Virus record (IMG/VR): IMGVR_UViG_3300002933_000006
Span: 5,202-69,201 of that record
Direction: 5' to 3' (one strand)
Source: a virus
Length of the DNA: 64,000 nucleotides
The notes beneath the pieces are model-generated. The model was not told the DNA's origin and searched no databases. It saw nothing but the letters and a program-made list of their open reading frames with translations. Made by a program: the position numbers and the translations under genes. Below are positions 8,219 through 57,310 of the stretch, piece by piece. The first letter of the stretch is position 1. Each line of letters begins with the position of its first letter.

Positions 8219-8434
8219 TTAACTCCACTTTAATAAAAACAAACACAGATCTTCCTCTTGAACAAATTCCACTCCACTATAACCAATGCCAATATCTTGC
8301 TGCCATCGTTGTCCATCTCCTCTCGGGCCAAAAGTTTGATCGCACCACTCATACAATTCATAAAAGTTAATAATCGGTCCGAGAAATTCTGCTATATACT
8401 TGCTAGATTGTAATTGATAGCTACGTATATTCAT
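8219..8434 (-). CDS. Small 'FxLxW-terminal' family protein (array 1)
   Basis: EWCDQTFG ... FVQEEDLCLFLLKWS. Confidence 0.75.
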   Translation of the reverse strand: MNIRSYQLQSSKYIAEFLGPIINFYELYEWCDQTFGPRGDGQRWQQDIGIGYSGVEFVQEEDLCLFLLKWS

Positions 8435-8444
8435 TATGCTATTC

Positions 8445-8732
8445 CTAATATGTCTTTGTTAAACTATCCCACACTTCGCCGTGCCAGGGTTTAAATGTTA
8501 TATTCCATTGCCAGGGACTGTCTAAGGTATTGCCCTTTGGCTTTCCAATAAGCTCAGTCCACTCACCTTGCGTATCTTCATATACTACACGATACCGCAG
8601 ACCTTGATTTATGTAAGCATACACATACTCAGCATCGTTAGTGACGCTCAAACAACCAGGGCGATTAAGATCTCGTATAAGCACAATGCCATCTTTTTTA
8701 TTAACTATTTCCCACTCAGCGTGACAACCCAT
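8445..8732 (-). CDS. Hypothetical protein embedded in array 1
   Basis: Starts at a TAATG overlap after AGGTGG; IRDL..SVTNDAE motif. Confidence 0.7.
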   Translation of the reverse strand: MGCHAEWEIVNKKDGIVLIRDLNRPGCLSVTNDAEYVYAYINQGLRYRVVYEDTQGEWTELIGKPKGNTLDSPWQWNITFKPWHGEVWDSLTKTY

Positions 8733-8911
8733 TATGACCACCTTAATAGATACATTGTTGCTAACTTGTCAGGCAATTCGATATACCATTGAGTTCGGAC
8801 AAGCATACCATTTTCTTCATGTTGACAGTCAACATCCCATCTTGGATAATGTTTGTCTAACCATTTCTCTCGTTCTCCCATCACTGGTACTGTAGTGCGT
8901 ATTTTTACCAT
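8732..8911 (-). CDS. FxLxW-terminal family protein
   Basis: Ends LPDKLATMYLLRWS; start at TAATG overlap. Confidence 0.7.
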   Translation of the reverse strand: MVKIRTTVPVMGEREKWLDKHYPRWDVDCQHEENGMLVRTQWYIELPDKLATMYLLRWS

Positions 8912-9126
8912 TATGCCCACCTCAACATAAACAACATTAAATCGTTTTCCTGAGCAAATTCTATCTCTCCGTAGGCAATACCATTTTTCCAACGTGCCTT
9001 AGGAACTGTACCAGCATAGCCGAACGCATCACGGCACCATTTCCACATTTCCTCACCGCTTGACGGAGGCTTAAACGCCGCTATATACGATGTCGATCCA
9101 CATGGTTGATATCCGTATATTTGCAT
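8911..9126 (-). CDS. FxLxW-terminal family protein
   Basis: KWCRDAFG ... FAQENDLMLFMLRWA. Confidence 0.75.
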   Translation of the reverse strand: MQIYGYQPCGSTSYIAAFKPPSSGEEMWKWCRDAFGYAGTVPKARWKNGIAYGEIEFAQENDLMLFMLRWA

Positions 9127-9383
9127 TATGCCCAACTCAATAAAAACAAAGTTGCTAATCTTTCGTCATCAAACTCTACCCACCATGTTGTACTTGTACC
9201 AGATGCCTGCCAACGATTCGCAAGATCGGTTGTTTTAGTCACAATTTTCCAGCCTTGTCCATCTGATGGGTATTTTTCATACTCATACAGCGGCAAGCCT
9301 ATATTCTTATACAACCAAGAACGAATTTCGTTTATCATATTCTCCTCGCCTAAGACATGCGGAGTGATATTAATCATAGTCAT
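9126..9383 (-). CDS. FxLxW-terminal family protein
   Basis: SWLYKNIG ... FDDERLATLFLLSWA. Confidence 0.75.
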   Translation of the reverse strand: MTMINITPHVLGEENMINEIRSWLYKNIGLPLYEYEKYPSDGQGWKIVTKTTDLANRWQASGTSTTWWVEFDDERLATLFLLSWA

Positions 9384-9649
9384 TATGCCCACTTCAACGC
9401 AAATAGCGTAGCCGTTTCGTCATTTTCAAAGTAATAAACCCGAGTAAGTTGCATCTCGTTAGAATTGTGATTGTGAAGCAGGCCTGCATCAACGACGGTA
9501 TTTTCGAAGTATCTACCCGGACGATCTTGAGCCAACCAAGTTGTATACTCAATAGGATCCCATTGTTTAATGCGCTTATATGTAACATGCACTTGGGCCC
9601 AGCCACGCTCTTCTAATGTCTTAACTTGATAGCCATTCCAAAATCTCAT
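9383..9649 (-). CDS. FxLxW-terminal family protein
   Basis: Ends FENDETATLFALKWA; start at TAATG overlap. Confidence 0.75.
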   Translation of the reverse strand: MRFWNGYQVKTLEERGWAQVHVTYKRIKQWDPIEYTTWLAQDRPGRYFENTVVDAGLLHNHNSNEMQLTRVYYFENDETATLFALKWA

Positions 9650-9846
9650 TATGCCCACCTTAATAAGAACAAGACTAAATCTTTTTTCTTTGTAAAATAA
9701 AATGCCAATCCATGTTGTCTCCAAGCATAGTCTTTAAATCTTTCTTCACACCACCCTCGTTGTTTGTAAGTATCTTCCCTGTTTACCTTAGCACTATATC
9801 GATATACAATTTGTTTTGTGCCATAATCAACATTTAATATGTCCAT
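9649..9846 (-). CDS. FxLxW-terminal family protein
   Basis: GWCEERF ... FTKKKDLVLFLLRWA. Confidence 0.75.
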   Translation of the reverse strand: MDILNVDYGTKQIVYRYSAKVNREDTYKQRGWCEERFKDYAWRQHGLAFYFTKKKDLVLFLLRWA

Positions 9847-9849
9847 GAA

Positions 9850-10038
9850 CTAACTCCACTTTAACGCAAATATTGTAGCATCTTCTTCACATTCAAAATA
9901 TATACCAGTTCCGCCACGTGCGTAATGGCCGTTACCTTCATAATCAACTAACCAGTGCAGTACCTGTTCATTCTTTAGTCGATTGTATGCGACGTAGGTA
10001 TAATTAACGTTTTGATCAACTATTATATTATTTTTCAT
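9850..10038 (-). CDS. FxLxW-terminal family protein
   Basis: Ends FECEEDATIFALKWS. Confidence 0.75.
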   Translation of the reverse strand: MKNNIIVDQNVNYTYVAYNRLKNEQVLHWLVDYEGNGHYARGGTGIYFECEEDATIFALKWS

Positions 10039-10220
10039 GCCCACCTTAGCAAAAACATAGTATAATCTTCTTCGCGGTCGAAGTATATAGTTTCAAATAC
10101 ACAACTCCAACGACCGCCAAAATAATCATACCCAAAATGTTTCTTACACCAGGTAGTAATTTCACTCATTTCAGCAATACCATTGTATTGCCATTTTAAA
10201 ATTTTAGTGCTTGCTAACAC
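10035..10220 (-). CDS. FxLxW-terminal family protein
   Basis: TWCKKHFG ... FDREEDYTMFLLRWA; probable GTG start in a TAGTG overlap. Confidence 0.75.
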   Translation of the reverse strand: MLASTKILKWQYNGIAEMSEITTWCKKHFGYDYFGGRWSCVFETIYFDREEDYTMFLLRWA

Positions 10221-10402
10221 TATGCCCACCTTAGCAAAAACATTGTGTAATCCCGTTTAAATCGAAAGCGACACTTAAACATATAAAATTTCCAAGTGAT
10301 GCTTGGCTCACCTACATTCTCCAGACACCAATCGATTATTTCAAGATGTTTTCGGTAATAGTCTGGTACGTCGTTGTAGTTAATTTTATATCTAAATGCC
10401 AT
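10220..10402 (-). CDS. FxLxW-terminal family protein
   Basis: DWCLENVG ... FKRDYTMFLLRWA. Confidence 0.75.
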   Translation of the reverse strand: MAFRYKINYNDVPDYYRKHLEIIDWCLENVGEPSITWKFYMFKCRFRFKRDYTMFLLRWA

Positions 10403-12549: not shown

Positions 12550-13749
12550 TTACAATTTCCAATATGGCGCAAATTCTGGAACTACATCTAATACATATTC
12601 ATTGCGTACTTGATCCAGTTTTTGTGTAGTTGCTATTACTGCTTCCCACGACATTGACGGTGATTGATACATGTAAGTAATTACTGCATCAATTTTGTCT
12701 TTAAGTATTTCGTATTTACTACTAGACAATAAACGATCTCGGGCTAGATCTTTTAACTCAGCAGGTAAGTTAGTAATATTTTGATCAAATGGGCCATGTG
12801 ATACAGTTAAATCAGTTCCTTCAAAAACTGTACTATTATCAAATGCAAAATCAAATACTTCCGCTAAATGCAGGATGTTATATACGGTGATCACTATGTT
12901 AAATTTTAATTTGGTATTAGGATATGCTAGTACTGTTTTAATATTTTTTTGTGTGTTTGCCCAATCGGCACCAGATCTAATATACTCCAGCAATGGCCCA
13001 ACAGCGTCAAGACTTACAATAAACAATATATTAGTAAATCGTTGTAAATATTCTTCTAAGCGATGTTTACCAAAACTTAACTTACTTAAATTTGTTGTGT
13101 AAGTAATACGAATATCGTGTAAGCCAAGTTGATCTAAATGATCTAACATTGCCCAATGCTCTGCTTGAAATAATGCTTCTCCGCCGGCAAAGTACACTTC
13201 CTTTAATTCACTCAGGTCTCCGTACTTGGAAATAATGCTTGCCCAATCGGTTGTATCATGTGCTTGTATTACAAAGTCTTTACGGCCGGTACCACGATAT
13301 GATTCTTCTGCCCAGGTATGACTATAAGCAGGACCACACATGCGACATTTATAGTTACAGATGTTGCTAAATCTACTGTCCCAATATTGCATTTTAAAAT
13401 CATGCAACGTGCCATCACTATCAGTGTTGCTTAATAATGAATCAACATCTATATTAAAATTCTTAATATCTAAATTCTTATTTGTACGGAAACTATTGAG
13501 ACCAACACTTTCTTCTCGATAGCATTGACTACACGCAGAGTTCTTATTACCGGCTAGCATATCTGTTCTAACTTCGCGCATTGATTTAGAATTCATTACA
13601 GATTCTGCTGAGTCAAAATCTCTTAAATTACCAAATTGCTTATTAATAGTATTAGCAGAACAACAGGGCTGAATATTACCACTGGGCTCATGAAAGAAAT
13701 GAATCCATGGTAATATACAAAAGGTATTACTCGGTAGGGGTTTCTTCAT
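12550..13749 (-). CDS. Radical SAM protein with N-terminal SPASM/twitch-type Cys cluster
   Basis: CNYKCRMC (CxxxCxxC), YFAGGE, CILPW..PCC..C..C. Confidence 0.9.
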   Translation of the reverse strand: MKKPLPSNTFCILPWIHFFHEPSGNIQPCCSANTINKQFGNLRDFDSAESVMNSKSMREVRTDMLAGNKNSACSQCYREESVGLNSFRTNKNLDIKNFNIDVDSLLSNTDSDGTLHDFKMQYWDSRFSNICNYKCRMCGPAYSHTWAEESYRGTGRKDFVIQAHDTTDWASIISKYGDLSELKEVYFAGGEALFQAEHWAMLDHLDQLGLHDIRITYTTNLSKLSFGKHRLEEYLQRFTNILFIVSLDAVGPLLEYIRSGADWANTQKNIKTVLAYPNTKLKFNIVITVYNILHLAEVFDFAFDNSTVFEGTDLTVSHGPFDQNITNLPAELKDLARDRLLSSSKYEILKDKIDAVITYMYQSPSMSWEAVIATTQKLDQVRNEYVLDVVPEFAPYWKL

Positions 13750-29561: not shown

Positions 29562-29759
29562 TTATGCCCATTTCAACTGAAATATCATTGCATCCGATTC
29601 TTCTTTAAAAGCAAAATCTATTAGCCGGGTGTTATTGGGGTGCATATCTGAACCAATATAACTTGCACACCGGTCCATTGCCCATTCTTGCATTTCAGAA
29701 AACCGAAGATCAAACTTCGCTGGGATTATTGTTTCTCTGTTGACAGTGACTATATGCAT
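29562..29759 (-). CDS. FxLxW-terminal family protein (array 2)
   Basis: Ends FKEESDAMIFQLKWA. Confidence 0.75.
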   Translation of the reverse strand: MHIVTVNRETIIPAKFDLRFSEMQEWAMDRCASYIGSDMHPNNTRLIDFAFKEESDAMIFQLKWA

Positions 29760-29971
29760 TATGAATACTTTAAACAAAATAAACTTACTGCTGGATTTTC
29801 GGGATCATAAAAACGCATTTCAATATAACCTTTAGATACAAAGTTGCAATCGTAATCTCGATTTACCTCTAACCCGTGTTCTTTAAGTTCTTCTTTGATG
29901 CGTAGAGTTTTAACTGCCCAAAGTTCTTGGCCTCTTTCATTTCTATCGTGTGGTATTCTAATTATCTTCAT
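29759..29971 (-). CDS. FxLxW-terminal family protein
   Basis: Ends FYDPENPAVSLFCLKYS. Confidence 0.7.
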   Translation of the reverse strand: MKIIRIPHDRNERGQELWAVKTLRIKEELKEHGLEVNRDYDCNFVSKGYIEMRFYDPENPAVSLFCLKYS

Positions 29972-30216
29972 AACCATTTCAATCTGAATAATGTTGCATC
30001 TGCTTCATCTTTATAGTATAGCGTCTTATTATGATAAAAGCAATCGGGTAAAGTTTCACCGACCCACGCTTTTAGTTCTATATCTCCGTATACCCAGTTG
30101 CCCGGCCCATAAAGTTTCTTATAGTCAGCATATTTCAATTCTATTAGAAATGCCGCATCAAGGGAATCAGCCATTTGTTGCGCTAGATCATTGGCGATTG
30201 CTTCTTCTAAATTCAT
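29968..30216 (-). CDS. FxLxW-terminal family protein with capsid-helix-like N-terminus
   Basis: MNLEEAIANDLAQQMADSLDAAFL ... YKDEADATLFRLKWL. Confidence 0.7.
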   Translation of the reverse strand: MNLEEAIANDLAQQMADSLDAAFLIELKYADYKKLYGPGNWVYGDIELKAWVGETLPDCFYHNKTLYYKDEADATLFRLKWL

Positions 30217-30425
30217 AGGTACTTTAATGTAAACGATGTTGCATCTGCAGGATTGTAAAATTCAAATTCTATGCTGGGTAATCGTATTTCGTGAGTTTCC
30301 CAACTGTACCCTCCCTGTAAGAATCTATAACTAAAATCTGCGTGTTGACGCAAAGTTAATCTAAGTTCCATGACTATCTCAAGTGCCCGGTCTGCGTCGA
30401 CATTTTGTAAAATAACAGTAGTCAT
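30213..30425 (-). CDS. FxLxW-terminal family protein
   Basis: Ends FYNPADATSFTLKYL. Confidence 0.7.
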   Translation of the reverse strand: MTTVILQNVDADRALEIVMELRLTLRQHADFSYRFLQGGYSWETHEIRLPSIEFEFYNPADATSFTLKYL

Positions 30426-30658
30426 AACCATTTCAACTTAAAGTGTGTAGCATCTGCTGAATTTTCAAATCTGAAACAAAATCCTTCTGTGCTGTTAAAT
30501 CCCCGTAAATGGTATTGGCCGCCTTCTGCTGTTTCAACCCAGTCCAGTATTTCCCTAATAGGATATTTAGGACCGCCGAATACATCTCGCCATAGTATTA
30601 TGACTTCTTCCCACTCAGTGTGCGGACCTTTAATATACTCAAACGGTATTTGTATCAT
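30422..30658 (-). CDS. FxLxW-terminal family protein
   Basis: Ends FENSADATHFKLKWL. Confidence 0.75.
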   Translation of the reverse strand: MIQIPFEYIKGPHTEWEEVIILWRDVFGGPKYPIREILDWVETAEGGQYHLRGFNSTEGFCFRFENSADATHFKLKWL

Positions 30659-30882
30659 CTATTTAAAACCCACCACATGTAATCTGCGTCGGTTTTGAAT
30701 TGAATATTGACGCTTACGGTGTATGTATCGTAATTAAATATAGGTTCTAACGTGTACGCATCGTCCATATACTGTTGCAAGTATTCTACCATACGAGCTT
30801 TAGTAATATCGTTAAATAGTTCGCCCATAAAATCAACCATAAGATTATTGGCAACGTATTCTAAACTAGGTATTGTTTTCAT
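30655..30882 (-). CDS. Divergent FxLxW-terminal family protein
   Basis: DFMGELFNDITKARMVEYL ... FKTDADYMWWVLNR. Confidence 0.65.
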   Translation of the reverse strand: MKTIPSLEYVANNLMVDFMGELFNDITKARMVEYLQQYMDDAYTLEPIFNYDTYTVSVNIQFKTDADYMWWVLNR

Positions 30883-31136
30883 TTAAATTTTAAGGTAAAT
30901 GCTGTTGCATCTTGTGCATCGATAAACCAAAATACCACTACATAATCGTGTACATAACTTGTGTCAGAAGTATCTAACATTTCTGACCATATTAAACTTA
31001 AATCATTTTCGTGGCACCACTTTTTCATTTTCCACGTTACAGTCGTTGGGTCCGCTATTAATACTTGATGGCATTGTTTAAGTACATCATTGGGTGGCTT
31101 AAACATATCTAAATAGTTTTCGGGATTAACGTGCAT
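30879..31136 (-). CDS. FxLxW-terminal family protein
   Basis: KWCHEN ... FIDAQDATAFTLKFK. Confidence 0.7.
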   Translation of the reverse strand: MHVNPENYLDMFKPPNDVLKQCHQVLIADPTTVTWKMKKWCHENDLSLIWSEMLDTSDTSYVHDYVVVFWFIDAQDATAFTLKFK

Positions 31137-31435
31137 TATGAGTACTTCAACTTATAAAATGTGTATTTTGCTTCATCTACGATTTCAAATGTTTGCCCGA
31201 TCATATTATCCAGGCGGTCGATTCGAAATCCGTATGTTTCTTCTAACCAAGTAGCAAATCCTTCTAATTCAAACTTTAGCCCTTCTGCTATACGTAGGTT
31301 ATCATATTCTGCTTTGGCTATCTGTAATGAACGCCAATGATCGTATTTGTCTAGTCCATCTGGCGTTGGTACTCCGCCCAATAGAGTATCTAACTTGGCT
31401 TCAAAGTCCGAGTATAAGTGATTGTTATTTGCCAT
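31136..31435 (-). CDS. FxLxW-terminal family protein
   Basis: TWLEETYG ... IVDEAKYTFYKLKYS. Confidence 0.7.
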   Translation of the reverse strand: MANNNHLYSDFEAKLDTLLGGVPTPDGLDKYDHWRSLQIAKAEYDNLRIAEGLKFELEGFATWLEETYGFRIDRLDNMIGQTFEIVDEAKYTFYKLKYS

Positions 31436-31631
31436 CTACATTGTCCAATACTGTTTTTGCATACCATCCCATACGTCCCTCTGGATCCATACGTTGTATA
31501 TCTTCTAATCCTACCCGCATTAATTCGTTTTGTTCTTCTAATAGATAAACACGATTACGTAGGTTGCCGGCAGTCATCCACGACATAAGCATAGATACAA
31601 ACTTACCCGCTATAGCACCCCAATCAATCAA
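31425..31631 (-). CDS. Hypothetical protein
   Basis: Overlapping gene chain. Confidence 0.6.
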   Translation of the reverse strand: MIDWGAIAGKFVSMLMSWMTAGNLRNRVYLLEEQNELMRVGLEDIQRMDPEGRMGWYAKTVLDNVDGK

Positions 31632-31915
31632 TATTCATTCCTTAATATATCAAATGCATCGCCGTATTCATATTTGTCGTATTTCATTACCGGAAACTTA
31701 CTGTCTGATTGAAATCGACGATAAACGGTCTTACCCCATTGCCACTTTCCGTGTATATCCCGGACAGGACGCCATGCAAACCACCTTTCCCACTTTGGCA
31801 TTGCAGTTTTAACATCAAATTCGGGAACTATTCTCCAGTTGACGCTATCGTACATTTCCCAGTTATTAGTAGTTGTCTTAAAACGTAACTGTCCTGTAAC
31901 TGGTTGTTGAATCAT
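31628..31915 (-). CDS. 'WFAWxPV' family small protein
   Basis: WERWFAWRPVRDIHGKWQWGKTVYRR ... YGDAFDIL. Confidence 0.75.
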   Translation of the reverse strand: MIQQPVTGQLRFKTTTNNWEMYDSVNWRIVPEFDVKTAMPKWERWFAWRPVRDIHGKWQWGKTVYRRFQSDSKFPVMKYDKYEYGDAFDILRNEY

Positions 31916-31925
31916 CTATCGTCCT

Positions 31926-32243
31926 TTATCCGTGTGGTCTCGGTGCAGGCGGTGGCGGCTTGGGTGGCCGTTGCCCGGTTGCTTGTTTTGGTGTGTCGAT
32001 ATCTTTAAGCAAATCAAAGTCTGTAGCATAATCACAGCCGGCATAGCGTTGAAATACTGTTGAATTGCGACGGTATATGCTTTTAAGCCATACGCAATCG
32101 CCGCTGATAGTCGTAACAGGATGCCACGCATACCACCGACGCCATTCCCCGGGTGCTCCGCCCATATTGCGTACCATTTCATTTATCTCTGTGGATAATT
32201 TATGTATTTGGTCTACCAATTGTTTTATTTGTTGGTTATTCAT
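31926..32243 (-). CDS. 'WFAWxPV' family small protein
   Basis: WRRWYAWHPVTTISGDCVWLKSIYRR ... YATDFDLL; Pro-rich tail. Confidence 0.75.
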   Translation of the reverse strand: MNNQQIKQLVDQIHKLSTEINEMVRNMGGAPGEWRRWYAWHPVTTISGDCVWLKSIYRRNSTVFQRYAGCDYATDFDLLKDIDTPKQATGQRPPKPPPPAPRPHG

Positions 32244-32470
32244 CTATCGTCCTTTAATCTATCAAAGTCGTCGCTGTATCGACGACGCACGCCGCCTGGG
32301 CCAAATCGTTCTGTATACCAAATCCATTCACGCCAATACCAGCGACCATTTACCCTGCGTGGAATAATGCTACAGAAATGTTTTTTCCATTGAGGCTCTG
32401 GCTCTTTGTACGTTACACCCATAGGACCACCATTCCATTCATCTTTAGGCTTCCTCCTGTAAGATGCCAA
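32240..32470 (-). CDS. 'WFAWxPV' family small protein (start uncertain)
   Basis: WKKHF..IPRRVNGRWYWREWIW ... YSDDFDRL. Confidence 0.65.
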   Translation of the reverse strand: MASYRRKPKDEWNGGPMGVTYKEPEPQWKKHFCSIIPRRVNGRWYWREWIWYTERFGPGGVRRRYSDDFDRLKDDR

Positions 32471-32606
32471 ATACTGTATCTGTATAGTAGATAACCAACT
32501 CTGTGTCTTTGCGATATATCATTTTAAGCCAATGCCATTTATTGTTAATCTTAATAGGTTTCCATGCAAATACTCTTTTCCACTTAGGTGCTTCTTCTCT
32601 TGTCAC
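32445..32606 (-). CDS. 'WFAWxPV' family small protein, not in ORF track (53 aa, GTG start)
   Basis: Manual translation: (V)TREEAPKWKRVFAWKPIKINNKWHWLKMIYRKDTELVIYYTDTVFGILQEEA*. Confidence 0.65.
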   Translation of the reverse strand: MTREEAPKWKRVFAWKPIKINNKWHWLKMIYRKDTELVIYYTDTVFGILQEEA

Positions 32607-32640
32607 TGTTATGCTACCGTCTGGATAGTAAATAACATCC

Positions 32641-33072
32641 TTAGGCCCACCTCAACGTAAACATAATGTAATCCCGTTCATCACGGAAAGTTATACTGCA
32701 TAATCCTGTATACCAACGTGACCAAGCATCTGGATTCTTTGGTTTCCGACCAAACTGTTCCTCTGCCCAGTTTAACGCATCTTTCCAATCCTGTGGCTCG
32801 ATATCAACCCTGTACCATTTAGCACGGCTAAAGTTCATTGGTTTCTTGGTAAACACTCTTGTATCCTTTTGATAGAATTGTAATGGGATATACGGTGCAT
32901 AGAACGCACCCATAGACATAGACATTGGCTGTACGCCCACGATATCATTAGCCAGTAAATCAGGAACTGTCTGCCTAATTATAGAAAGTACGGCCTTTTG
33001 TGTATTGGCGGTATTCGGTTGCCCTATAAATTGAGCAAGTGCATCATTCAATTGTTTCTGGATTGTATTCAT
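32641..33072 (-). CDS. Chimeric FxLxW-terminal protein with major-capsid-like N-terminal segments
   Basis: AVLSIIRQTVPDLLANDIVGVQPM and GAFYAPYIPLQ, then NWAEEQFG ... FRDERDYIMFTLRWA. Confidence 0.75.
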   Translation of the reverse strand: MNTIQKQLNDALAQFIGQPNTANTQKAVLSIIRQTVPDLLANDIVGVQPMSMSMGAFYAPYIPLQFYQKDTRVFTKKPMNFSRAKWYRVDIEPQDWKDALNWAEEQFGRKPKNPDAWSRWYTGLCSITFRDERDYIMFTLRWA

Positions 33073-33287
33073 TATGACCATTTCAACATAAAGACTGATG
33101 CATCTTTTGCATCCTTAAAATAAAATGTGCTATCCTCGTTTATCCAACCAAATCGCCAGCGATACTTACGTCCACCTGGACCGAATGATTCTTCGCACCA
33201 AGATATAATCTCAGTTTCTTGTTTTCCTGTAGTAAAGGGCACGGTAATCTTTGTTTTATATTTGCTTTTGCGTTCTGCTACTATCAT
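33072..33287 (-). CDS. FxLxW-terminal family protein
   Basis: SWCEESFG ... FKDAKDASVFMLKWS. Confidence 0.75.
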   Translation of the reverse strand: MIVAERKSKYKTKITVPFTTGKQETEIISWCEESFGPGGRKYRWRFGWINEDSTFYFKDAKDASVFMLKWS

Positions 33288-33472
33288 GCCCATCTCAATG
33301 CAAATAGTGTAATATCTATTTCTTTATAAATCATAATAACATAACTCCCCCATTGATCGTCGGGATCTTCTATATATTTCCATCTGTCCATATTATGGCC
33401 AAACTGCTCTACGCACCACTGCAACATTTTCGCAGTTCTTTCGCTTACCATCGATACCCGGTGATATATCAC
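33284..33472 (-). CDS. FxLxW-terminal family protein
   Basis: QWCVEQFG ... IYKEIDITLFALRWA. Confidence 0.75.
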   Translation of the reverse strand: MIYHRVSMVSERTAKMLQWCVEQFGHNMDRWKYIEDPDDQWGSYVIMIYKEIDITLFALRWA

Positions 33473-33750
33473 GAATATTTCAACCTAAACACAGTTTCCT
33501 CAGCAGGAGTATCAAACTTCAGTACCCACTTACTCGATCTATACATACTATCACCTACACGGAACTCTCTAACAACAATGCGATAGTTACCGGGCCAGCG
33601 TAGTTTCATTCTGTCGGTAATCATATCTAATGTAGTATTAGGGTCGCGATCACTCATTTCCCAATCTGTTAACCATTCCCATGGTGTTTTCACTTGATAT
33701 TTCTCCTCGATGTTAAACCAAGTTTTTGCTATTCCATAACTAATTGTCAT
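33469..33750 (-). CDS. FxLxW-terminal family protein
   Basis: Ends FDTPAEETVFRLKYS. Confidence 0.7.
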   Translation of the reverse strand: MTISYGIAKTWFNIEEKYQVKTPWEWLTDWEMSDRDPNTTLDMITDRMKLRWPGNYRIVVREFRVGDSMYRSSKWVLKFDTPAEETVFRLKYS

Positions 33751-33950
33751 TCTGCCGCCGCCAATATATCAAACATTGTAGCATACTCTGTAAAAGGTTC
33801 TTCGTGCATACCAGTATAACGCCAGACAATACGTTTATAACACTTGCGAAACCAAATCCATTGGCCTGTAATCGTACGGTGCGGAAAGACAGCGAAACTG
33901 GGCCACCAGTCTATCTGTACAGTAACTAATTCATTTATATATTTCATCAT
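33747..33950 (-). CDS. 'WFAWxPV' family small protein
   Basis: WWPSFAVFPHRTITGQWIWFRKCYKR ... YATMFDIL. Confidence 0.7.
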   Translation of the reverse strand: MMKYINELVTVQIDWWPSFAVFPHRTITGQWIWFRKCYKRIVWRYTGMHEEPFTEYATMFDILAAAE

Positions 33951-34249
33951 GCCCACCTTAACGCAAACATCATTGATTGTTCTTCATCTGTTATATCAAC
34001 TACATAACCTGTGCGATATCCACACCAACCACCTATGACTCGATCATCATAATCTTCATAGTATGCTCTGATTTCCCATCCCGCCCCAATATATAATGCA
34101 ACTTCCTCGCCATTGTCTGTTAGTGGTGTATCGCCCCGGCAATAATATTCGCCAACATTCTCTTCTAACCACAATTTGATATCCTGTAATCTATGTTCAT
34201 GTTCGCGGATATCCTGTATTTCACGGCGAGAGATTTCAAATATACCCAT
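33947..34249 (-). CDS. FxLxW-terminal family protein
   Basis: LWLEENVG ... ITDEEQSMMFALRWA. Confidence 0.75.
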   Translation of the reverse strand: MGIFEISRREIQDIREHEHRLQDIKLWLEENVGEYYCRGDTPLTDNGEEVALYIGAGWEIRAYYEDYDDRVIGGWCGYRTGYVVDITDEEQSMMFALRWA

Positions 34250-34459
34250 TTATAACCATCTTAATTTAAACATTGTAGCATACTTTTCCTCAGAGAAGTA
34301 GAATGTATAACACCTAAATGGTGCATCTACGGTCCATGGATTATGCCGATTTACATTATCTTTCCAAATAGCTTGGTTGCCAATATAGGTATTACACCAT
34401 TTAACAATTTCCATATACTTTTGGACATCAATATCTAATTCAACTTGGTCTGCTATCAT
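34250..34459 (-). CDS. FxLxW-terminal family protein
   Basis: KWCNTYIG ... FSEEKYATMFKLRWL. Confidence 0.75.
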   Translation of the reverse strand: MIADQVELDIDVQKYMEIVKWCNTYIGNQAIWKDNVNRHNPWTVDAPFRCYTFYFSEEKYATMFKLRWL

Positions 34460-34698
34460 GCCCACCTCAACATAAAAGTCATCCGTTGTTTTTCGTCCAT
34501 TATTGTAAAACTAGCAAACTGGCCTTTTTCGTCAGTCCACTGATTTCTAAATCTAAAATCAATACCGTTATTGTTAAGCCATTGCCACACCAAGCTAGTA
34601 TATTCACCGTAAGGACAAGGTATCTTAACAGTTGCGTTCATATCTGCTACCAGTTCCGGGCTCGGTTTGTATGGATTCTGTTCGTTGTATACAATCAT
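34456..34698 (-). CDS. FxLxW-terminal family protein
   Basis: QWLNNNG ... IMDEKQRMTFMLRWA. Confidence 0.75.
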   Translation of the reverse strand: MIVYNEQNPYKPSPELVADMNATVKIPCPYGEYTSLVWQWLNNNGIDFRFRNQWTDEKGQFASFTIMDEKQRMTFMLRWA

Positions 34699-35000
34699 CC
34701 CCACCTCAACAAAAACATAGTACGATCCGCATCGTGGTCAAAGTGTAAAACCATCCCTGTTTGCCTAATGCCAGACCCGTACTCGTCTATCCACTTCTCA
34801 ATGTCTTTTTGATTGTTAACCCAATGTACGTAATCTTCGATGATTAGCATAAGTGCACCTGTCACAGGTGACATAGCAGGAATAAACTTGCCGCCGGCTT
34901 GCATTTGTATTACCCCGTTGAGAAACTGTAGCTTTTCTCCATTTTCTTCTATAGTAACTAAATCTAAGCCGGGCATTATATTTTTAAGAGTTCTTTTCAT
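34695..35000 (-). CDS. FxLxW-terminal family protein
   Basis: KWIDEYG ... FDHDADRTMFLLRWG. Confidence 0.75.
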   Translation of the reverse strand: MKRTLKNIMPGLDLVTIEENGEKLQFLNGVIQMQAGGKFIPAMSPVTGALMLIIEDYVHWVNNQKDIEKWIDEYGSGIRQTGMVLHFDHDADRTMFLLRWG

Positions 35001-35337
35001 ATGTCAGTGTAATGCGATTAAGTGCTTGTCTGGGGTAGATATGTTTGCTTTGTACATAGATCTGCCCATCAGGAAAGTCATAAGTTAGCATCCAATTAAA
35101 ATAACGCTTATCGTATATTTGACCTTCTTTGTACATTACCGTTTCCACTAAGTTAGGTAATGTACGCTCTGCAGGATATACGCCACCTGGATTCTTAATA
35201 CGATCAATTAAGATTTCGTCTTGTAATTCTCTGTAAGTCAGCGGTTCTACTTCAATATCAGTCCATAGAGGATTTTTACGTTCTTTATTTAGGAACGCAA
35301 TCATGTCCTTGTCCCGCATAATAAGTTTTACTTTCAT
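34984..35337 (-). CDS. Hypothetical protein embedded in array 2
   Basis: Starts at a TGATG overlap after AAGGTGG. Confidence 0.65.
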   Translation of the reverse strand: MKVKLIMRDKDMIAFLNKERKNPLWTDIEVEPLTYRELQDEILIDRIKNPGGVYPAERTLPNLVETVMYKEGQIYDKRYFNWMLTYDFPDGQIYVQSKHIYPRQALNRITLTYEKNS

Positions 35338-35513
35338 CACGACCACCTTAACATAAAAAAATTAACATCTTCCATTCGTTCAAAATATATAATAGGCAAA
35401 TCTCCGCGGCAGTCAACGAGATCGCCAAAGTTTTCTTTTGCCCATTCTTGCATCTCTATACGCTTACGATATGATGCAGAACCTATAGTTACTTCAATAT
35501 GTTGTTTTTCCAT
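35337..35513 (-). CDS. FxLxW-terminal family protein
   Basis: EWAKENFG ... FERMEDVNFFMLRWS. Confidence 0.75.
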   Translation of the reverse strand: MEKQHIEVTIGSASYRKRIEMQEWAKENFGDLVDCRGDLPIIYFERMEDVNFFMLRWS

Positions 35514-35728
35514 TATGCCCACCTTAACGCAAATAACACCGCATCTTTGTCATCTTCGAACTCTACAAAACATTCTTTTGTCCAGCTAGGTGATTCATAA
35601 AACCGTGCTTGACATTTTGCGTTACACCAGTACCGTAGATCAAAGTTCTTTAAAAGATCTCTACTGTAATAAACACGATGTAGCACTGGCAGATGTATAC
35701 CTGGCATTGTTTCTTTATAGGTAATCAT
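35513..35728 (-). CDS. FxLxW-terminal family protein
   Basis: YWCNAKC ... FEDDKDAVLFALRWA. Confidence 0.75.
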   Translation of the reverse strand: MITYKETMPGIHLPVLHRVYYSRDLLKNFDLRYWCNAKCQARFYESPSWTKECFVEFEDDKDAVLFALRWA

Positions 35729-35970
35729 GACATCCTTAAGGCAAATAATGTTACATCCTGCGCCGAAGCAAATCCCAACTTTATAACACCGTTGGCATTG
35801 GCACTATAAAGAATATTGTGCTTTTCTTCAAACCACCGAACCATTGACTCGTTTGAATAATCCCTTTGATTATTTGGCAATGATACTTGGTGGGCCCGCC
35901 ACTCATCAAGTACGTTACTGTAGGGCTTTAATAATCGCTCAAAGCGAACGTAATACCTATCTCTCATCAC
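35725..35970 (-). CDS. FxLxW-terminal family protein
   Basis: RWFEEKH ... FASAQDVTLFALRMS. Confidence 0.7.
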   Translation of the reverse strand: MMRDRYYVRFERLLKPYSNVLDEWRAHQVSLPNNQRDYSNESMVRWFEEKHNILYSANANGVIKLGFASAQDVTLFALRMS

Positions 35971-36236
35971 AGCGACTCTATATCCCTACAAATAAGTTTA
36001 AGCCATACAAGTTCTTGTTCATTGACTTTGCCCCAACTTGTGTTATTACTAGGTGCTTTAACAAGTGTAACACCATTGGCATTTTCTAGCCACACACGAT
36101 TGCTGTTCTTTAGTGCTTCGTCGTGCAAGTACCTCCATCCTACTGTACCGGGTTTAACATCAGTAATACTAAGGTACTTGTGCGTATTGCCAAATATAGT
36201 AATGTTGTCTTGAATTTCGTAATAGTAGTTAATCAT
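35967..36236 (-). CDS. Hypothetical protein
   Basis: Overlapping gene chain; ends ELVWLKL... Confidence 0.65.
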   Translation of the reverse strand: MINYYYEIQDNITIFGNTHKYLSITDVKPGTVGWRYLHDEALKNSNRVWLENANGVTLVKAPSNNTSWGKVNEQELVWLKLICRDIESL

Positions 36237-36460
36237 AGTCTTGACTCCAGTCCCGGGACCTTCATTACCTCTATAATATTACAATGTATGCATCGCTTAT
36301 TAAGAACATAGTGCTGTATAGACGTATAATTCTTGTCTTTGATCCACTGTCCCTTGTTCCAGTGTGTCCAACGATGTATACCAAAACGACACCAAAAACT
36401 ATTCACAAGTGGAGACTCATCCTTTAATGCTCTAACTGTATTTTCGTGTTCGATATTCAT
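36233..36460 (-). CDS. Small putative zinc-binding protein (paralogue of 36457..36645)
   Basis: ENTVRALK ... WCRFGIHRW ... CIHC. Confidence 0.7.
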   Translation of the reverse strand: MNIEHENTVRALKDESPLVNSFWCRFGIHRWTHWNKGQWIKDKNYTSIQHYVLNKRCIHCNIIEVMKVPGLESRL

Positions 36461-36645
36461 TTTGTCTGATTAAATTGATGTTTATTACAGCAAAGGCATT
36501 TTCTGTATTGTGTCCATTTTTCATTTAACATAGGTTCTTTCCAAAAACTCCACCTGTGTAATCCCAAACGGCATTGCCAACGGTATACAGGAAATGGTTC
36601 ATGCCCTTTAAGGACTCTCATTGTATTCTCTTTATCAACATTCAT
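36457..36645 (-). CDS. Small putative zinc-binding protein
   Basis: ENTMRVLK ... QCRLGLHRW ... CLCC. Confidence 0.7.
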   Translation of the reverse strand: MNVDKENTMRVLKGHEPFPVYRWQCRLGLHRWSFWKEPMLNEKWTQYRKCLCCNKHQFNQTK

Positions 36646-36961
36646 CTGTGCGATTCCACTCTTCTTCGTAAAAATCAACTTGCTGTTGTATGTCTCGATC
36701 ATCATAATGCTCAACACGCATTAATGTCAGTTCGCCTTCGTACTTTAATTTTAGCATACTTTCTTGCTTATCATCAACGGTATCTACCCAATATTCTGCT
36801 CGGCCTGCTATCGAAATTGGCTGTCCGTTACGGTGATTAACAAGATTATGAAAATCATGTGATTCGACTTTAGATTCAAGTTTATTGCAACACCCGGTTA
36901 TCCAATTATAGTCAGCTTCATCTAACTGTGGCCGGTCAATACGCCAACGCTTTAATATCAT
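36635..36961 (-). CDS. Hypothetical protein, possible extended FxLxW family member
   Basis: Internal TVDDKQESMLKLKYEG. Confidence 0.6.
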   Translation of the reverse strand: MILKRWRIDRPQLDEADYNWITGCCNKLESKVESHDFHNLVNHRNGQPISIAGRAEYWVDTVDDKQESMLKLKYEGELTLMRVEHYDDRDIQQQVDFYEEEWNRTDEC

Positions 36962-37143
36962 AGCCAATACAATGCAAACAAGCTCGCATCCTCTTCTCGT
37001 ACAAATTGTATAAACTGTGTACCAAAAGCAAATCGTTGATACCAACGGTCTAGTCGCATATGGCCAAACTGTTCAGCACACCATCGAGCAATTTCTATAT
37101 GCTTGTGATAATACTCGTCGCGATCTAATGTAAATTCAATCAT
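36958..37143 (-). CDS. FxLxW-terminal family protein
   Basis: RWCAEQFG ... FVREEDASLFALYWL. Confidence 0.75.
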   Translation of the reverse strand: MIEFTLDRDEYYHKHIEIARWCAEQFGHMRLDRWYQRFAFGTQFIQFVREEDASLFALYWL

Positions 37144-37361
37144 AGCCATTGTAATCTAAACATAGTTTCTGCGGCATCATCAAAGAAGTCTAAATGCACT
37201 TCTTCAATATAAGTGTGCTTTACATAACGAGCTTCAGCAAAACGTGGACAAAATCCCAATTCGCGACGCATCTTTTCTCGAATCATAGCCGTAGCTTTGC
37301 CGTGTTTTTCCTCTATGTTATTACGAACAATAGACCATTCGTGCTTTGATAATGTAATCAT
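37140..37361 (-). CDS. FxLxW-terminal family protein
   Basis: Ends FFDDAAETMFRLQWL. Confidence 0.75.
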   Translation of the reverse strand: MITLSKHEWSIVRNNIEEKHGKATAMIREKMRRELGFCPRFAEARYVKHTYIEEVHLDFFDDAAETMFRLQWL

Positions 37362-45694: not shown

Positions 45695-45954
45695 TATATC
45701 TTTTCTCTCCAAGTGGCTAGTTTTACCAATTCTTCATATGTAGTGTTTTCTTTCTTTATGGTCATATCCAATAAACTTTCAAACAGAACCATAACAAACT
45801 GTGAAGCTAACCCACCATTAACACAATTATCTAAAACTTCCAATATTTGCAATGCAGTTGGTTCATCATTCCATTTTTCAATAAGTGGAAACACACATGG
45901 ATCCAACTGACCTTCGGGTGCTTCTAGTAAAGTTTCTTTAATCTGTTTGTTCAT
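45694..45954 (-). CDS. Hypothetical protein with MNKQIKE head
   Basis: ATGA overlap with the ligase stop. Confidence 0.65.
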   Translation of the reverse strand: MNKQIKETLLEAPEGQLDPCVFPLIEKWNDEPTALQILEVLDNCVNGGLASQFVMVLFESLLDMTIKKENTTYEELVKLATWREKI

Positions 45955-47261
45955 AATTTCTCTCCTGGTTCAAATCCGCGGAATCCTTTAAAACGTGGGA
46001 ATCGTAAACTGTAAGTGCCGTCTTGGTTTTGTGTTACAGCATCAGCACGGACTTCAACCAACTGCCCAATAACACTAGCACTATCACGCCAAATGTCGTT
46101 TCGCATATCATCAGTGAGCCCACTACCAACATTGACGGTAATAGACTTCCCGTCGTCTTGTCCTTCACAAACAAGGGCTCCAAGACGTCCAACATTCTTT
46201 CCTGTACCTTCTTCAACATTCTTAACCTCCAAAGTTACTTCAATATACGGCTTTTGTTTTAACCAAGCTACACTACGTTTACATTCATACCCAGCTTCGG
46301 GATCTTTAATCATAATGCCTTCGTATCCACCAGCAATAGCACTAGCATTGATAGCACTAAATTCCTGAGCACCTTCTGGGGTATCTAAGTCCACAAGCGC
46401 ATTTTCTAACACAGTAATATTAGGCATATGGTCACGAATAGGGCTGTACCAAATCTTTAGTGCATTACTACGTTCACGCTGGGTAACCTTACTAGCACCA
46501 GTTTTAAACTCAGCTAATGTAAGAATATCAAACAAGTTTAACACAGCGTCATTGGCCAGCACATCACTCTTACGATGTACTTGTGTCATTAAGTCTTGGA
46601 AACTACTAGACATAATCTCACCATCAAACACAACGGGTTCTGGTAAGAATACTGCGTGTTTTGCAAACTGCTCTTTAACGTGTGGAAAGTTTACCAGTTC
46701 TTTACCGTTACGGCTGTACATATCGACATGCCCGCTAGGATACACAATAGTAATAACGCGAACTCCATCCAATTTGACTTCAATGAATTTCTTCCCTGAA
46801 ACTTTGGATTCGTGGTTAGCTCCATCATGAGCCAACTGACAGCTAAACACAGGTATAATATAATCAGCATTTACTTTTCCAGCAATCTTATTAATAGTTG
46901 TTTCACTAGTACCACAGCGCAAATCTTTAATAAGAATACGACGATACCACAAGTTCCACTCTGCTTCTCGTGCATTCATACGCATATGATTGATTGCGGT
47001 AAGTGCGGCATTGCCAGATAATTCACGTGCGGCTAGCTTATTAGCAGTTTGATAAAAGATATCAGAATTTAAGCCTTTACCATCTCCAGTCTTTTCTGCA
47101 ACTTGGCGGACGCCAAAGGTAACCATGCTGTCGAGAGCAAGTCTGGTACCATCAAAAAATGCAGTATTGCCCGCTTCAGCTTCACGCTTAATGACGGCTT
47201 CTTTGGCCAACCGACTATTATCTGCTTCTAGCTCTGCAATTACTTCCCATGGTTTCAACAT
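45951..47261 (-). CDS. ATP-dependent DNA ligase
   Basis: EVKLDGVR (KxDG), FDGEI, FDIL, EGIMIK, WLKQK, SLRFPRF. Confidence 0.95.
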   Translation of the reverse strand: MLKPWEVIAELEADNSRLAKEAVIKREAEAGNTAFFDGTRLALDSMVTFGVRQVAEKTGDGKGLNSDIFYQTANKLAARELSGNAALTAINHMRMNAREAEWNLWYRRILIKDLRCGTSETTINKIAGKVNADYIIPVFSCQLAHDGANHESKVSGKKFIEVKLDGVRVITIVYPSGHVDMYSRNGKELVNFPHVKEQFAKHAVFLPEPVVFDGEIMSSSFQDLMTQVHRKSDVLANDAVLNLFDILTLAEFKTGASKVTQRERSNALKIWYSPIRDHMPNITVLENALVDLDTPEGAQEFSAINASAIAGGYEGIMIKDPEAGYECKRSVAWLKQKPYIEVTLEVKNVEEGTGKNVGRLGALVCEGQDDGKSITVNVGSGLTDDMRNDIWRDSASVIGQLVEVRADAVTQNQDGTYSLRFPRFKGFRGFEPGEKL

Positions 47262-50915: not shown

Positions 50916-51410
50916 ATGTTTTCAATATATAAGATTACTAATACAGTTAACAATAAGATCTATATAGGATTTTCGTCCAGGAACCCAATGGATAGATGGT
51001 ACAATCATCAACGATGTGCCATAAACAGTAAAAAAAATACGCATTTATATAATGCTATGAGAAAATACGGTCTTAATAATTTTCAATTTGATATTATATA
51101 TCAGTCCAATGATTGTACCCATACTCACAAAATAATGGAAAATTACTTTATTGTAGAATATCGTACTTATGTTGGCTTTCCGGACTGCAACGGTTATAAT
51201 ATGACCCTCGGCGGCGAAGGCGCAGTAGGAAGAGTAGATACTCCCGAAACTACAACAAAACGATCTACTGCAAAAATAGGTAAAAAAAGAGCGTCGATGA
51301 CATTAGAGCAAAAAGCTAAGATATCTGCATCAAAAAAGAATAAACCCTGGTCTCCAGCAAGATTAGCAATAGGATACAAAAAGAAACCCACAGAAGTGGG
51401 TTCCTGTTAG
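50916..51410 (+). CDS. GIY-YIG homing endonuclease (free-standing) with NUMOD3-like tail
   Basis: SIYKITN..NNKIYIG, R.YNH, AMRKYG, GYNMTLGGEG, EQKAKISAS. Confidence 0.9.
   Translation: MFSIYKITNTVNNKIYIGFSSRNPMDRWYNHQRCAINSKKNTHLYNAMRKYGLNNFQFDIIYQSNDCTHTHKIMENYFIVEYRTYVGFPDCNGYNMTLGGEGAVGRVDTPETTTKRSTAKIGKKRASMTLEQKAKISASKKNKPWSPARLAIGYKKKPTEVGSC
51383..51403. terminator. Hairpin between the convergent GIY-YIG gene and tmRNA
   Basis: GAAACCCAC-AGAA-GTGGGTTCC. Confidence 0.65.
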
Positions 51411-51680
51411 TTTCTGTTACGAGGTATAACTACCCTAAGCAGTTTTTAGGCTGCTAATGCGAATGTATTATCATTTGCGGTTACTTCTTATTTGCTGATT
51501 ACGTCAGTCAACTCTCGTGTTGCCTCTTTCGTTATCTCACCATGTCGAAACCGGTCGGACCCAACGAAATATACTCTGTTACATGTCACCGCTTCGCGCT
51601 TGCGGTCGAATATACTTCGGTGGATCCGGGGAGAATCGAACTCCCGTCCACAGCGCCTTCACTACGAAGGAATTACAACA
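51385..51680 (-). ncRNA. ssrA: Circularly permuted (two-piece) tmRNA, tag (A)ANDNTFALAA
   Basis: Order on the minus strand: T-arm GGGAG-TTCGATT-CTCCC and 3' acceptor CGGATCC-A (51645-51621); intervening hairpin; 5' acceptor GGGTCCG at 51562 with G3:U pair; GGTTTCGAC; tag ORF 51478-51446. Ends are approximate. Confidence 0.92.
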
Positions 51681-51696
51681 ATTCTTTACTTACCGC

Positions 51697-51945
51697 TTAT
51701 ACTGTTAAAACTAAAGCAATAACCGGAGGGGGAGAAAATGTATTAATAAATGCTATCCATTCATTCGCGGCCTCTTCGGTGGTCCAAATACGACTCGATG
51801 TTTTAGTATTTGGGTCATCTGTGCTGTTAATAAAAGTTCCATCTGTTGCTCCGGCACTAACCAATTCTGCAATTTTAGCGTCACGGATCGGTCTTTCTTC
51901 GGCAGTAAGAGATCTTGCAAACTTTACCTGAGTTGTGATTGTCAT
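51697..51945 (-). CDS. Hypothetical protein
   Basis: R.WTTEEAANEWIAF motif; AGGA RBS. Confidence 0.65.
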   Translation of the reverse strand: MTITTQVKFARSLTAEERPIRDAKIAELVSAGATDGTFINSTDDPNTKTSSRIWTTEEAANEWIAFINTFSPPPVIALVLTV

Positions 51946-57245: not shown

Positions 57246-57310
57246 AATCAGTCATAAAAATAGGGTAAGTTGTCTTACCCTAGTATTTATCAGTTTAACT
57301 TTGTGTTGTC

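Follow-up and report, generated by a model that had tools for sequence, protein, structure and literature searches.

A viral family of small proteins that bear exchangeable copies of conserved T4-type core motifs on a common carrier domain

The subject of this work is a small gene in a 64,000-nucleotide stretch of viral DNA (the window; positions 5,202 to 69,201 of IMG/VR record IMGVR_UViG_3300002933_000006). The gene (32641..33081, minus strand; 146 amino acids (aa) from its first ATG), hereafter the target gene, belongs to an array of small genes and encodes a protein in which two separated pieces of a T4-type capsid protein are joined to a C-terminal carrier domain. In relatives of the target protein the carrier bears other N-terminal pieces, many of which copy highly conserved motifs of phage core proteins and can be swapped from one carrier to another. 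We hold this anatomy, and the family pattern of swappable core-motif pieces, with high confidence. As to what such proteins do, our best guess, offered tentatively and quite possibly wrong, is that they act as competitive mimics or decoys of host sensing of conserved phage motifs.

Results

The target protein joins two distant segments of a capsid protein

A preliminary description, made from the letters of the window, had singled out the interval 32878-33072, which corresponds to residues 4-68 of the target open reading frame (ORF; residue numbering begins at the first ATG). Residue 4 is also encoded by an ATG (33070-33072), and this is the likelier start of the gene, for a protein of 143 aa. 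The upstream array gene ends in a TAA stop that shares nucleotides with this ATG (TAATG), and the identical database protein P0001 (143 aa) begins at the same residue. A terminator-like hairpin was also noted just upstream of the target start, within the end of the preceding array gene (33097-33113, minus strand).

That description had proposed that one array gene combines a capsid segment, a second capsid motif and an F.L.W domain, and profile searches, genome searches and alignments all bore this out. The Pfam profile PF07068 (Gp23) matched residues 25-58 on profile positions 2-35 (E=1.1e-7, 32.1 bits vs. a cut-off of 24.4), and PHROG 138 'major head protein' matched residues 13-62 (E=3.5e-8). 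A second Gp23 stretch, at profile positions 315-329, was weak alone (E=0.06, 8.3 bits) and reached 31.4 bits with its neighbouring stretch; together, the two intervals are all that the target protein covers of the 376 positions of the profile. By tblastn, the target protein matched 936 of 50,697 phage records, and genes annotated as major capsid or head lay under 31 of the 40 rows listed, the other nine being hypothetical or unannotated. A phmmer search of PDB sequences aligned residues 20-62 with T4 gp23 residues 82-126 (E about 6e-5; 5vf3, 6uzc, 8t9r, 8gmo) and residues 51-70 with T4 gp23 residues 440-459, again weakly when taken alone. Thus, when residues 30-68 were compared with gp23-family capsid proteins, as had been suggested, the similarity was significant for the N-arm/Gol stretch and weak alone for the AFYAPYIPLQ strand. 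The preliminary figure of about 14/29 gap-free identities to the Gol stretch of T4 gp23 was reproduced by a hand count of the phmmer alignment over residues 30-58 (14/29).

The same arrangement emerged from comparison with G001, a complete related jumbo phage genome (E values are for a database of its 241 ORFs). Residues 1-61 of the target protein align without gaps to G001 capsid residues 31-91 (19/61 identical, 38/61 positive, E=2e-7), and residues 59-67 (AFYAPYIPL) correspond to AFYCPYIPL at capsid residues 338-346 (8/9 identical). The second motif had been placed hundreds of residues further along the capsid protein, and this is where it lies in G001; in a T4-type major capsid protein, the conserved YAPY(I/V) strand is found about 250-330 residues past the N-arm. 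On these alignments, the N-terminal 67 residues read as a contiguous stretch of capsid N-arm, after which the match skips about 250 residues and resumes at the C-terminal strand. The target gene can accordingly be divided, all on the minus strand, into a capsid N-arm-like stretch (residues 1-29; 32995..33081), which is covered by the gapless G001 alignment and, from residue 2, by tblastn matches to PA5oct-type capsid genes; the Gol-homologous segment (residues 30-58; 32908..32994); the copy of the C-terminal capsid strand, AFYAPYIPLQ (residues 59-68; 32878..32907), which abuts the Gol-homologous piece directly; a linker of low predicted order (residues 69-83; 32833..32877); and the carrier domain (residues 84-146; 32644..32832). 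Gapless back-extrapolation from the T4 alignment, in which residue 20 of the query equals residue 17 of mature gp23*, would place the residue-4 ATG close to where the mature capsid protein begins.

One part of the preliminary description did not survive. The stretch that precedes the Gol-homologous segment had been likened to C-terminal helices of the tail sheath. The match of residues 4-44 to the tail-sheath family PHROG 23 was not significant (E=0.099, 12.4 bits), and this stretch is part of the capsid N-arm alignment of residues 1-61; tail-sheath helices at residues 7-27 are not supported. Of the proposed mosaic of structural-protein pieces, the two separated capsid segments stand and the tail-sheath component lacks support.

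Despite passing the Gp23 cut-off, the target protein is not a capsid protein, because the complete HK97-type fold (E-loop, spine helix and A domain) is absent and only about 67 residues are capsid-like. The real capsid genes of related phages encode 395-398 aa. A Gp23 search of the source record (69.2 kilobases (kb); CheckV completeness 19%) returned the small target ORF as its only match and no full capsid gene in the 69 kb. Among the array genes of the window, only the target showed a capsid piece when N-terminal pieces were searched against the G001 ORFs. Megablast of 31500-34500 against the phage records gave no match.

A large family of viral proteins shares the carrier domain

A word-indexed search found 18 homologues of the target protein, with an invariant C-terminal domain and very different N-termini. 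In the alignment of these 19 sequences (A1), the invariant positions are F84, S85, R86, A87, W89, Y90, W105, F110, G111, A119, W120, R122, W123, F132, R133, D134, D137, Y138, F141, L143, R144 and W145, and the target protein conforms to all of them. The consensus of the carrier domain, about 63 aa long, is FSRAKWY ... W ... FG ... PDAWSRW ... FRDE.DY..F.LRW. The invariant Trp is followed by 0-2 further residues in nearly all members, and by one in the target protein, before the domain ends.

Membership of an array, as first described, was confirmed with a regular expression for the C-terminal F.L[KR]W-type motif, which matched 29 ORFs of at least 45 aa in the window, 27 of them on the minus strand; the two plus-strand matches look like chance. 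The target's carrier domain is common to about 27 neighbouring array genes. These genes form a larger array, which holds the target and in which members of another small-gene family are interspersed (29562..37361, minus strand), and, at 8219..10402 (minus strand), a smaller second array with this domain family.

The family extends well beyond the window. A profile search of 1.84 billion representatives returned 395 proteins at E<=1e-3 and 111 at E<=1e-10 (family representatives were clustered at 50% identity). A contig scan found 164 relatives in viral contigs, and 78 loci were fetched, several of them on contigs of 200-380 kb. Members occur in two complete genomes, both with T4-type core genes: G001 (364 kb, with terminal repeats) and G002 (382 kb). 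The F.LRW carrier family is thus large and virus-only. No relative of the carrier domain was found in the 50,697 deposited phage records (tblastn of the C-terminal domain), and neither Pfam (searched with the target and 10 neighbouring array proteins) nor NCBIfam (searched with five proteins) placed a family on it.

Structure prediction was carried out with AlphaFold2 (AF2). The model of the carrier domain alone had a mean predicted local distance difference test score (pLDDT) of 87.7, a predicted template-modelling score (pTM) of 0.70 and a predicted beta-alpha-beta-beta-alpha fold. Foldseek against the PDB, with the whole model or the domain, gave best E values of 0.32-0.38; these weak, ferredoxin-like likenesses were not used. 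Structure matches in the Atlas and BFVD were only to uncharacterised viral proteins. In the model of the whole target protein, the N-arm/Gol part forms two helices (residues 3-16 and 25-49; pLDDT 91-94), the second of which falls largely in the Gol-homologous segment, and residues 50-88, including VQPM...AFYAPYIPL, have low pLDDT (53-69), the AFYAPYIPL region probably being extended. Because the pTM of the whole protein is only 0.45, vs. 0.70 for the carrier domain alone, the models suggest that the N-terminal piece is displayed without fixed packing against the carrier.

The carrier's C-terminal end raises the question of whether it serves as an address. The F.LRW C-terminus, or else the N-arm, could dock the protein into the procapsid as virion cargo, to be packaged and sent into the cell along with the DNA, with the N-terminal pieces being incidental or acting after injection. 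A terminus that lies 0-2 residues past an invariant Trp is what a terminal docking signal might look like. This proposal leaves the retention of enzyme catalytic motifs on the same carrier (see below) unexplained, and the family has no cultured relative, the search of deposited phage records with the C-terminal domain having returned no match. We consider a role as cargo quite unlikely.

N-terminal pieces copy conserved motifs of several core proteins

Recurring motifs of the N-terminal pieces were first recognised by reading the family representatives and then tested with tools. Pieces from highly conserved core-protein motifs are carried by 82 of 166 family members. Among the 166, the capsid N-arm/Gol motif was counted in 36 members, the YAPY(I/V)P-type capsid strand in 22, the catalytic loop of ribonucleotide reductase (RNR) in 36, an RQxGKS-type Walker A motif in 20 and the polymerase B motif NSxYG in 2; the corresponding means in shuffled sequences were 0.83, 0.03, 0.01, 0.07 and 0.09. 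Where several motifs co-occur, their order is Walker A, polymerase, RNR and then capsid pieces, with one exception. Gol-type and YAPYIP-type pieces are joined in six members, including the target. A DYQ-type stretch starts a few family members.

The sources of these pieces could be traced in jumbo genomes that carry the family. In G001, G002 and two near-complete genomes, IYQSNLCCEILLPTKS or IRQSNLCAEIDLPTKP occurs in the RNR large subunit, KK(I/N)LNS(L/A)YGA in polymerase B, VILPVIRRVMPTVIANELVGVQPMTGP and AFYCPYIPL in the capsid protein, and LYGGMSRGELNIFAGGSGSGKSL in a 487-aa ORF located after a primase-like ORF. Judged by eye from its place after the primase-like ORF and its Walker A motif, the 487-aa ORF is probably the replicative helicase. 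We had considered a terminase as the origin of the Walker A piece and dropped it in favour of a DnaB/gp41-type helicase, on the basis of PHROG 19, of helicase genes under tblastn matches and of the 487-aa ORF. PHROG 19 (DnaB-like helicase) matched 2 of 19 close members (E=0.0063), and helicase genes lay under 10 of 28 records matched by the Walker A piece, all weakly. In the same 19 members, Pfam Gp23 was found in 10 and Pfam RNR in 2 (E=0.0065). The polymerase piece of P0079 matched records in which DNA polymerase genes lay under 34 of 39, each match being weak (E 1-9).

A blind test pointed to the same sources. When 153 N-terminal pieces of family and array proteins were compared with all 241 long ORFs of G001, 38 pieces matched at E<=1e-3 vs. 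0 shuffled, and 45 vs. 5 at E<=0.01. Repeated matches fell on just three ORFs, namely the capsid protein (44 matches), RNR at residues 435-465 (5 matches) and the helicase at residues 172-211 (4 matches). The other eight target ORFs had single, marginal matches.

An additional motif, (Y/F)PKT.AAL(K/R)(K/R)LP, recurs at the N-termini of P0024, P0027, P0056, P0126, L031 and L041. It may continue the RNR piece, to judge by eye from the phages' own RNR, which reads LPTKSFKRL after the catalytic loop.

Capsid-derived pieces also occur elsewhere in the jumbo genomes. G001 and G002 each have one full capsid gene plus two small ORFs with Gp23 pieces. In G002, the 112-aa F.L.W protein L088 (C1:351161-351385, minus strand) has an N-terminus that copies the spine-helix region of the capsid protein (Gp23 profile positions 136-219, E=5.5e-9), and in G001 an F.L.W protein at 57244-57528 (plus strand) has, by eye, a similar copy of that region. 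Three capsid regions have therefore been copied onto F.L.W domains: the N-arm, the spine-helix region and the C-terminal strand. We also noticed, by eye, that at L089 (G001:C1:13507-13854, plus strand) and L084 (G005) a capsid-piece gene directly follows a gene for a protein of about 320 aa resembling NAD-dependent epimerases/dehydratases. In the L089 protein the Gol-type piece is joined to another, longer body, which nevertheless terminates in L.W.TLKWG.

The copying of three capsid regions, and the fact that every recognised source is a T4-type core protein, would be expected if the pieces engaged their parent proteins as dominant-negative fragments and interfered with assembly or folding. 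A copy of the N-arm could fill the N-arm site of a neighbouring subunit and so tune the phage's own head assembly or poison co-infecting T4-type phages. The structure of the T4 head is compatible with such a role: in the text available from one study, residues 66-105 of gp23* have no ordered structure until the head expands and then form the N-arm and N-fist, with inter-subunit contacts (PMC9546572), and the T4 N-arm/N-fist, flexible before expansion, makes extensive contacts within and between capsomers (PMC9546572). Two considerations make us regard interference as unlikely. The phage's own proteins bear the same motifs, so that it would poison itself. In addition, the RNR loop, the Walker A motif and the polymerase B motif are not known to be subunit interfaces.

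The breadth of the sources bears equally on the Gol-homologous segment. This segment could bind host EF-Tu and modulate translation or an EF-Tu-dependent defence, as its homology to the stretch of T4 gp23 that contains Gol would suggest. The T4 capsid protein is cited as EF-Tu-binding, and EF-Tu is part of the Avs7 capsid-sensing complex, in the accessible portion of a recent account (10.64898/2026.01.04.697583). At the same time, 15 of the 29 Gol positions differ from T4, and EF-Tu binding would account for members of the capsid type alone, leaving aside the RNR, helicase and polymerase pieces that the carrier bears in other members. A complex prediction for E. coli EF-Tu with target residues 1-75 gave a score of 0.00 and a mark of 0.32, values that favour neither binding nor its absence. 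We consider EF-Tu binding a very improbable function of the target. The reading in the preliminary description, of a decoy for Lit- or CapRel-type immunity or an EF-Tu binder, is a live hypothesis, and mimicry gains plausibility from the family-wide pattern, beyond what the single gene offered; the copied pieces are not capsid-specific in the family, so that an explanation built on Gol, EF-Tu and Lit alone is too narrow.

The pieces are conserved as protein and exchanged as cassettes

The ratio of non-synonymous to synonymous substitution rates (dN/dS) was estimated for 59 gene pairs of relatives with 55-97% protein identity, the window gene lying outside this set. For the N-terminal pieces, dN/dS was below 1 in all 59 pairs, the largest value being 0.74. 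Gol-type pieces had values of 0.08-0.37, about equal to those of the carrier domain, followed by RNR+YAPYIP-type pieces (0.16-0.32) and Walker A+RNR-type pieces (0.23-0.74). In close relatives of the target (85%, 67% and 49% identical), the N-terminal pieces are visibly conserved in the protein alignment. In the relatives that make up the 59 pairs, the N-terminal pieces are thus under purifying selection as protein.

Both the conservation and the variability of the N-termini bear on whether the pieces have a function at all. They could be tolerated debris of illegitimate recombination, recognised only when the source happens to be conserved. About half of the members (84/166) have N-termini without a recognisable source, pieces are frequently swapped, and the Walker A/RNR-type pieces have looser dN/dS, all as such a functionless mosaic would predict. 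It does not fit with dN/dS well below 1 in every pair, and as low in Gol-type pieces as in the carrier, nor with the retention of motif cores among representatives clustered at 50% identity, nor with the repeated matching of only three of 241 long ORFs, each in the same region (RNR, helicase) or in conserved motifs (capsid). On balance, we find a mosaic without function very unlikely. The preliminary description had itself allowed for a neutral remnant with no conservation of the capsid-like segment; the occurrence of Gp23 in 10 of 19 close members and the low dN/dS of the relatives' Gol-type pieces say otherwise.

We also compared the pieces with their sources at the level of DNA. In G001 and G002, capsid pieces and the capsid gene of the same genome share 48-56% nucleotide identity, and identical codons account for only 5-9 among 15-22 identical residues. 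The G002 piece is equally near its own capsid protein and that of G001 (22/40 identical residues each). For an RNR piece, 34 of 72 nucleotides are identical to the source gene. Recent capture from the phage's own capsid gene and gene conversion were rejected for G001 and G002, there being no DNA homology.

These comparisons also dispose of a role for the DNA itself. Helicase P-loops, like the motifs of RNR and polymerase B, are classic places for inteins and homing endonucleases to insert, although a literature search yielded nothing specific on this point. The copied DNA could have anchored recombination, supplied spare templates for repair or mimicked the target sites of homing endonucleases or inteins. 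The lack of nucleotide similarity to same-genome sources, with mostly different codons for identical residues, led us to reject all of these. The core genes of G001 and G002 are, moreover, uninterrupted, and the small genes lie far from them. Because DNA homology is missing, recent capture, gene conversion, spare templates and nuclease-site mimicry are ruled out for these genomes, and a DNA-level role in the family as a whole is scarcely credible. Since the N-terminal pieces have no DNA homology to their sources, their motif residues must be kept for the action of the peptide. Capture from the capsid gene may have happened more than once, because the piece of P0141 is, by eye, 25/26 identical to the capsid type of G001/G002.

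Finally, N-terminal pieces behave as exchangeable cassettes between closely related carriers. This follows from near-identical carriers, from changes on the carrier tree and from side-by-side paralogues. Carrier domains that are 74-86% identical bear unrelated N-terminal pieces, with further cases in P0031, P0082 and P0036, and the carriers of P0008 (Gol type) and P0013 (Walker A+RNR) are identical at 53 of 66 positions. When N-terminal types were mapped on a carrier-domain tree, which is poorly resolved, 83 changes were required vs. a shuffled mean of 93.8. Paralogues with different N-terminal pieces adjoin within one genome (L003, L017).

Genomic setting and probable host

The DNA of the window is present in freshwater metagenome runs, and three further runs hold 57-95% of sampled words; no RNA data set was listed among those containing it. 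A full-length transfer-messenger RNA (tmRNA) gene lies at 51382-51722 on the minus strand (Rfam beta_tmRNA, 169.3 bits, E=1.4e-52, model positions 1-331 of 331), and ARAGORN reads its tag peptide as ANDNTFALAA. At 2653-3627 (minus strand) is a gene for a TctC-family protein ('Bug'-type tripartite tricarboxylate transporter receptor; Pfam E=9.8e-17), an unusual auxiliary gene for a phage. The host is likely a betaproteobacterium, because the phage-borne tmRNA fits the betaproteobacterial model and because of the TctC-family gene. Lit is known from an E. coli background, unlike this probable host. The presence of a tmRNA on the phage hints at interference with ribosome rescue.

Within 29-38.5 kb, which spans the larger array, terminator-like sites are somewhat enriched (13 vs. 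5.8 ± 2.5 in shuffles). A promoter scan, which bears on the early expression suggested in the preliminary description, found no enrichment of promoter-like sites (44 vs. 37.4 ± 6.3 in shuffles). Five small ORFs interspersed in the array (31628-32606 and 33747-33956, minus strand) carry, by eye, a different Trp-rich motif, approximately W.R.FAW.P[VI] ... G.W.W ... [IV]YRR, and probably constitute a second paralogous mini-gene family. Elsewhere in the window, and also on the minus strand, are genes for a radical SAM/SPASM protein (12550-13749), an ATP-dependent DNA ligase (45951-47261), a 927-aa protein with an amidoligase domain (54462-57245) and an NT5C-type 5' nucleotidase (58158-59096).

Discussion

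The core proteins that are copied in this family share little beyond being very conserved proteins of T4-type phages. Only recognition systems care about the conservation of the source proteins, and for this reason we favour a role based on recognition. The pieces have been taken out of their native folds and still keep residues that are invariant in the source, which implies, we infer, a reader of those residues. In the mechanism that we propose, a reader that normally engages the genuine core proteins would be offered linear copies of their invariant motifs by the target protein. That reader would most plausibly be a host sensor of conserved phage motifs, of the Lit or CapRel kind, and the mimic would blunt or mistime the sensor's response. 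Stability, and perhaps also oligomerisation or docking, would come from the carrier domain.

Aspects of bacterial immunity lend themselves to this interpretation. In the available text of a recent account, Lit and CapRel detect the capsid protein via short sequence motifs, and STAND (signal transduction ATPases with numerous domains) sensors cover most core structural and replicative proteins of phages (10.64898/2026.01.04.697583). The activation of Lit by Gol, within T4 gp23, is described in the consulted part of another source (PMC9712102).

Several points nonetheless weigh against mimicry of host sensing. One would expect a sensor to be activated, and not blocked, when a mimic binds to it. 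Of the 166 members, 84 have none of the five motifs, and the polymerase B piece is found in two members only. The RNR, polymerase and Walker A motifs are catalytic loops buried in folded enzymes, so that a sensor of the folded protein would not see them. The dN/dS values come from outside the window's own clade, whose close relatives P0002-P0004 are available as protein sequences alone and for which the nearest loci with DNA are 43-44% identical. Avs-type capsid sensors wrap the whole HK97 fold, according to the portion of the text at hand (10.64898/2026.01.04.697583), and a 60-residue piece cannot imitate that whole fold. Finally, the portions of the sensor literature examined describe no sensor that recognises the motifs of RNR or polymerase B.

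A broader form of the proposal, possible but in our view doubtful, is that a modular 'epitope display' repertoire is maintained by jumbo phages that have T4-type core genes: peptides copied from the least mutable motifs of the phages' own core proteins, swappable on one small carrier domain, would antagonise factors of the host or of rival phages that recognise phages by short invariant linear motifs. If it were true, linear-motif sensors resembling Lit or CapRel would be far more widespread than is known and would include enzymes of replication and nucleotide metabolism among their targets.

Bacterial immunity senses much of the conserved phage proteome, sometimes via short motifs, and how phages answer such sensing, beyond mutating the trigger, is a largely unexplored question. 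Invariant motifs cannot mutate freely. Copying them, selecting them and shuffling them on a common carrier would, if the idea is right, be a new counter-measure or inter-phage weapon. The displayed peptides are in that case ready-made probes: each would point to a motif that is read in the cell and could be used as bait for sensors or partners. If mimicry is the wrong reading, the family still shows repeated, modular domestication of protein fragments from essential genes in viruses.

How does this architecture compare with known systems? The closest likeness is to T4 gp23 itself (PF07068; 5vf3, 6uzc), to which target residues 20-62 are homologous (gp23 82-126) and residues 51-70 bear a resemblance (gp23 440-459); the copied stretch is one that is known, from the part of the source available, as a short linear trigger of Lit (PMC9712102). 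Unlike gp23, the target protein has about 67 residues of a fold of about 400-520, drawn from two separated places, with an unrelated domain attached. It is unable to form a shell, 15 of 29 Gol positions differ, and its host is probably a betaproteobacterium.

Dominant-negative fragments, P4 Sid and the capsid-redirecting proteins of satellites offer a second parallel, as pieces or partners of a structural protein that act on its assembly pathway. P4 Sid and the satellite proteins interfere with capsid assembly; in contrast to the target family, interferers of the P4 Sid type are not known to be copies of the capsid's own motifs or to be modular.

A third parallel is with counter-defence mimics of phages (mimics of DNA or of antitoxins) and with the integrated decoys of plant nucleotide-binding leucine-rich repeat receptors, in which a copy of a recognised feature diverts the recogniser. 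Here, by contrast, it is the phage's own invariant peptide motifs that are copied, and a mimic of a trigger should activate the sensor. In the main texts covered by our literature search, there was no description of phage proteins that display copies of the phage's own invariant motifs. What is new is that one carrier family bears enzyme as well as capsid pieces, that these are selected at the level of protein and that they are swapped as cassettes. We therefore rate the F.LRW architecture as lying outside the known kinds.

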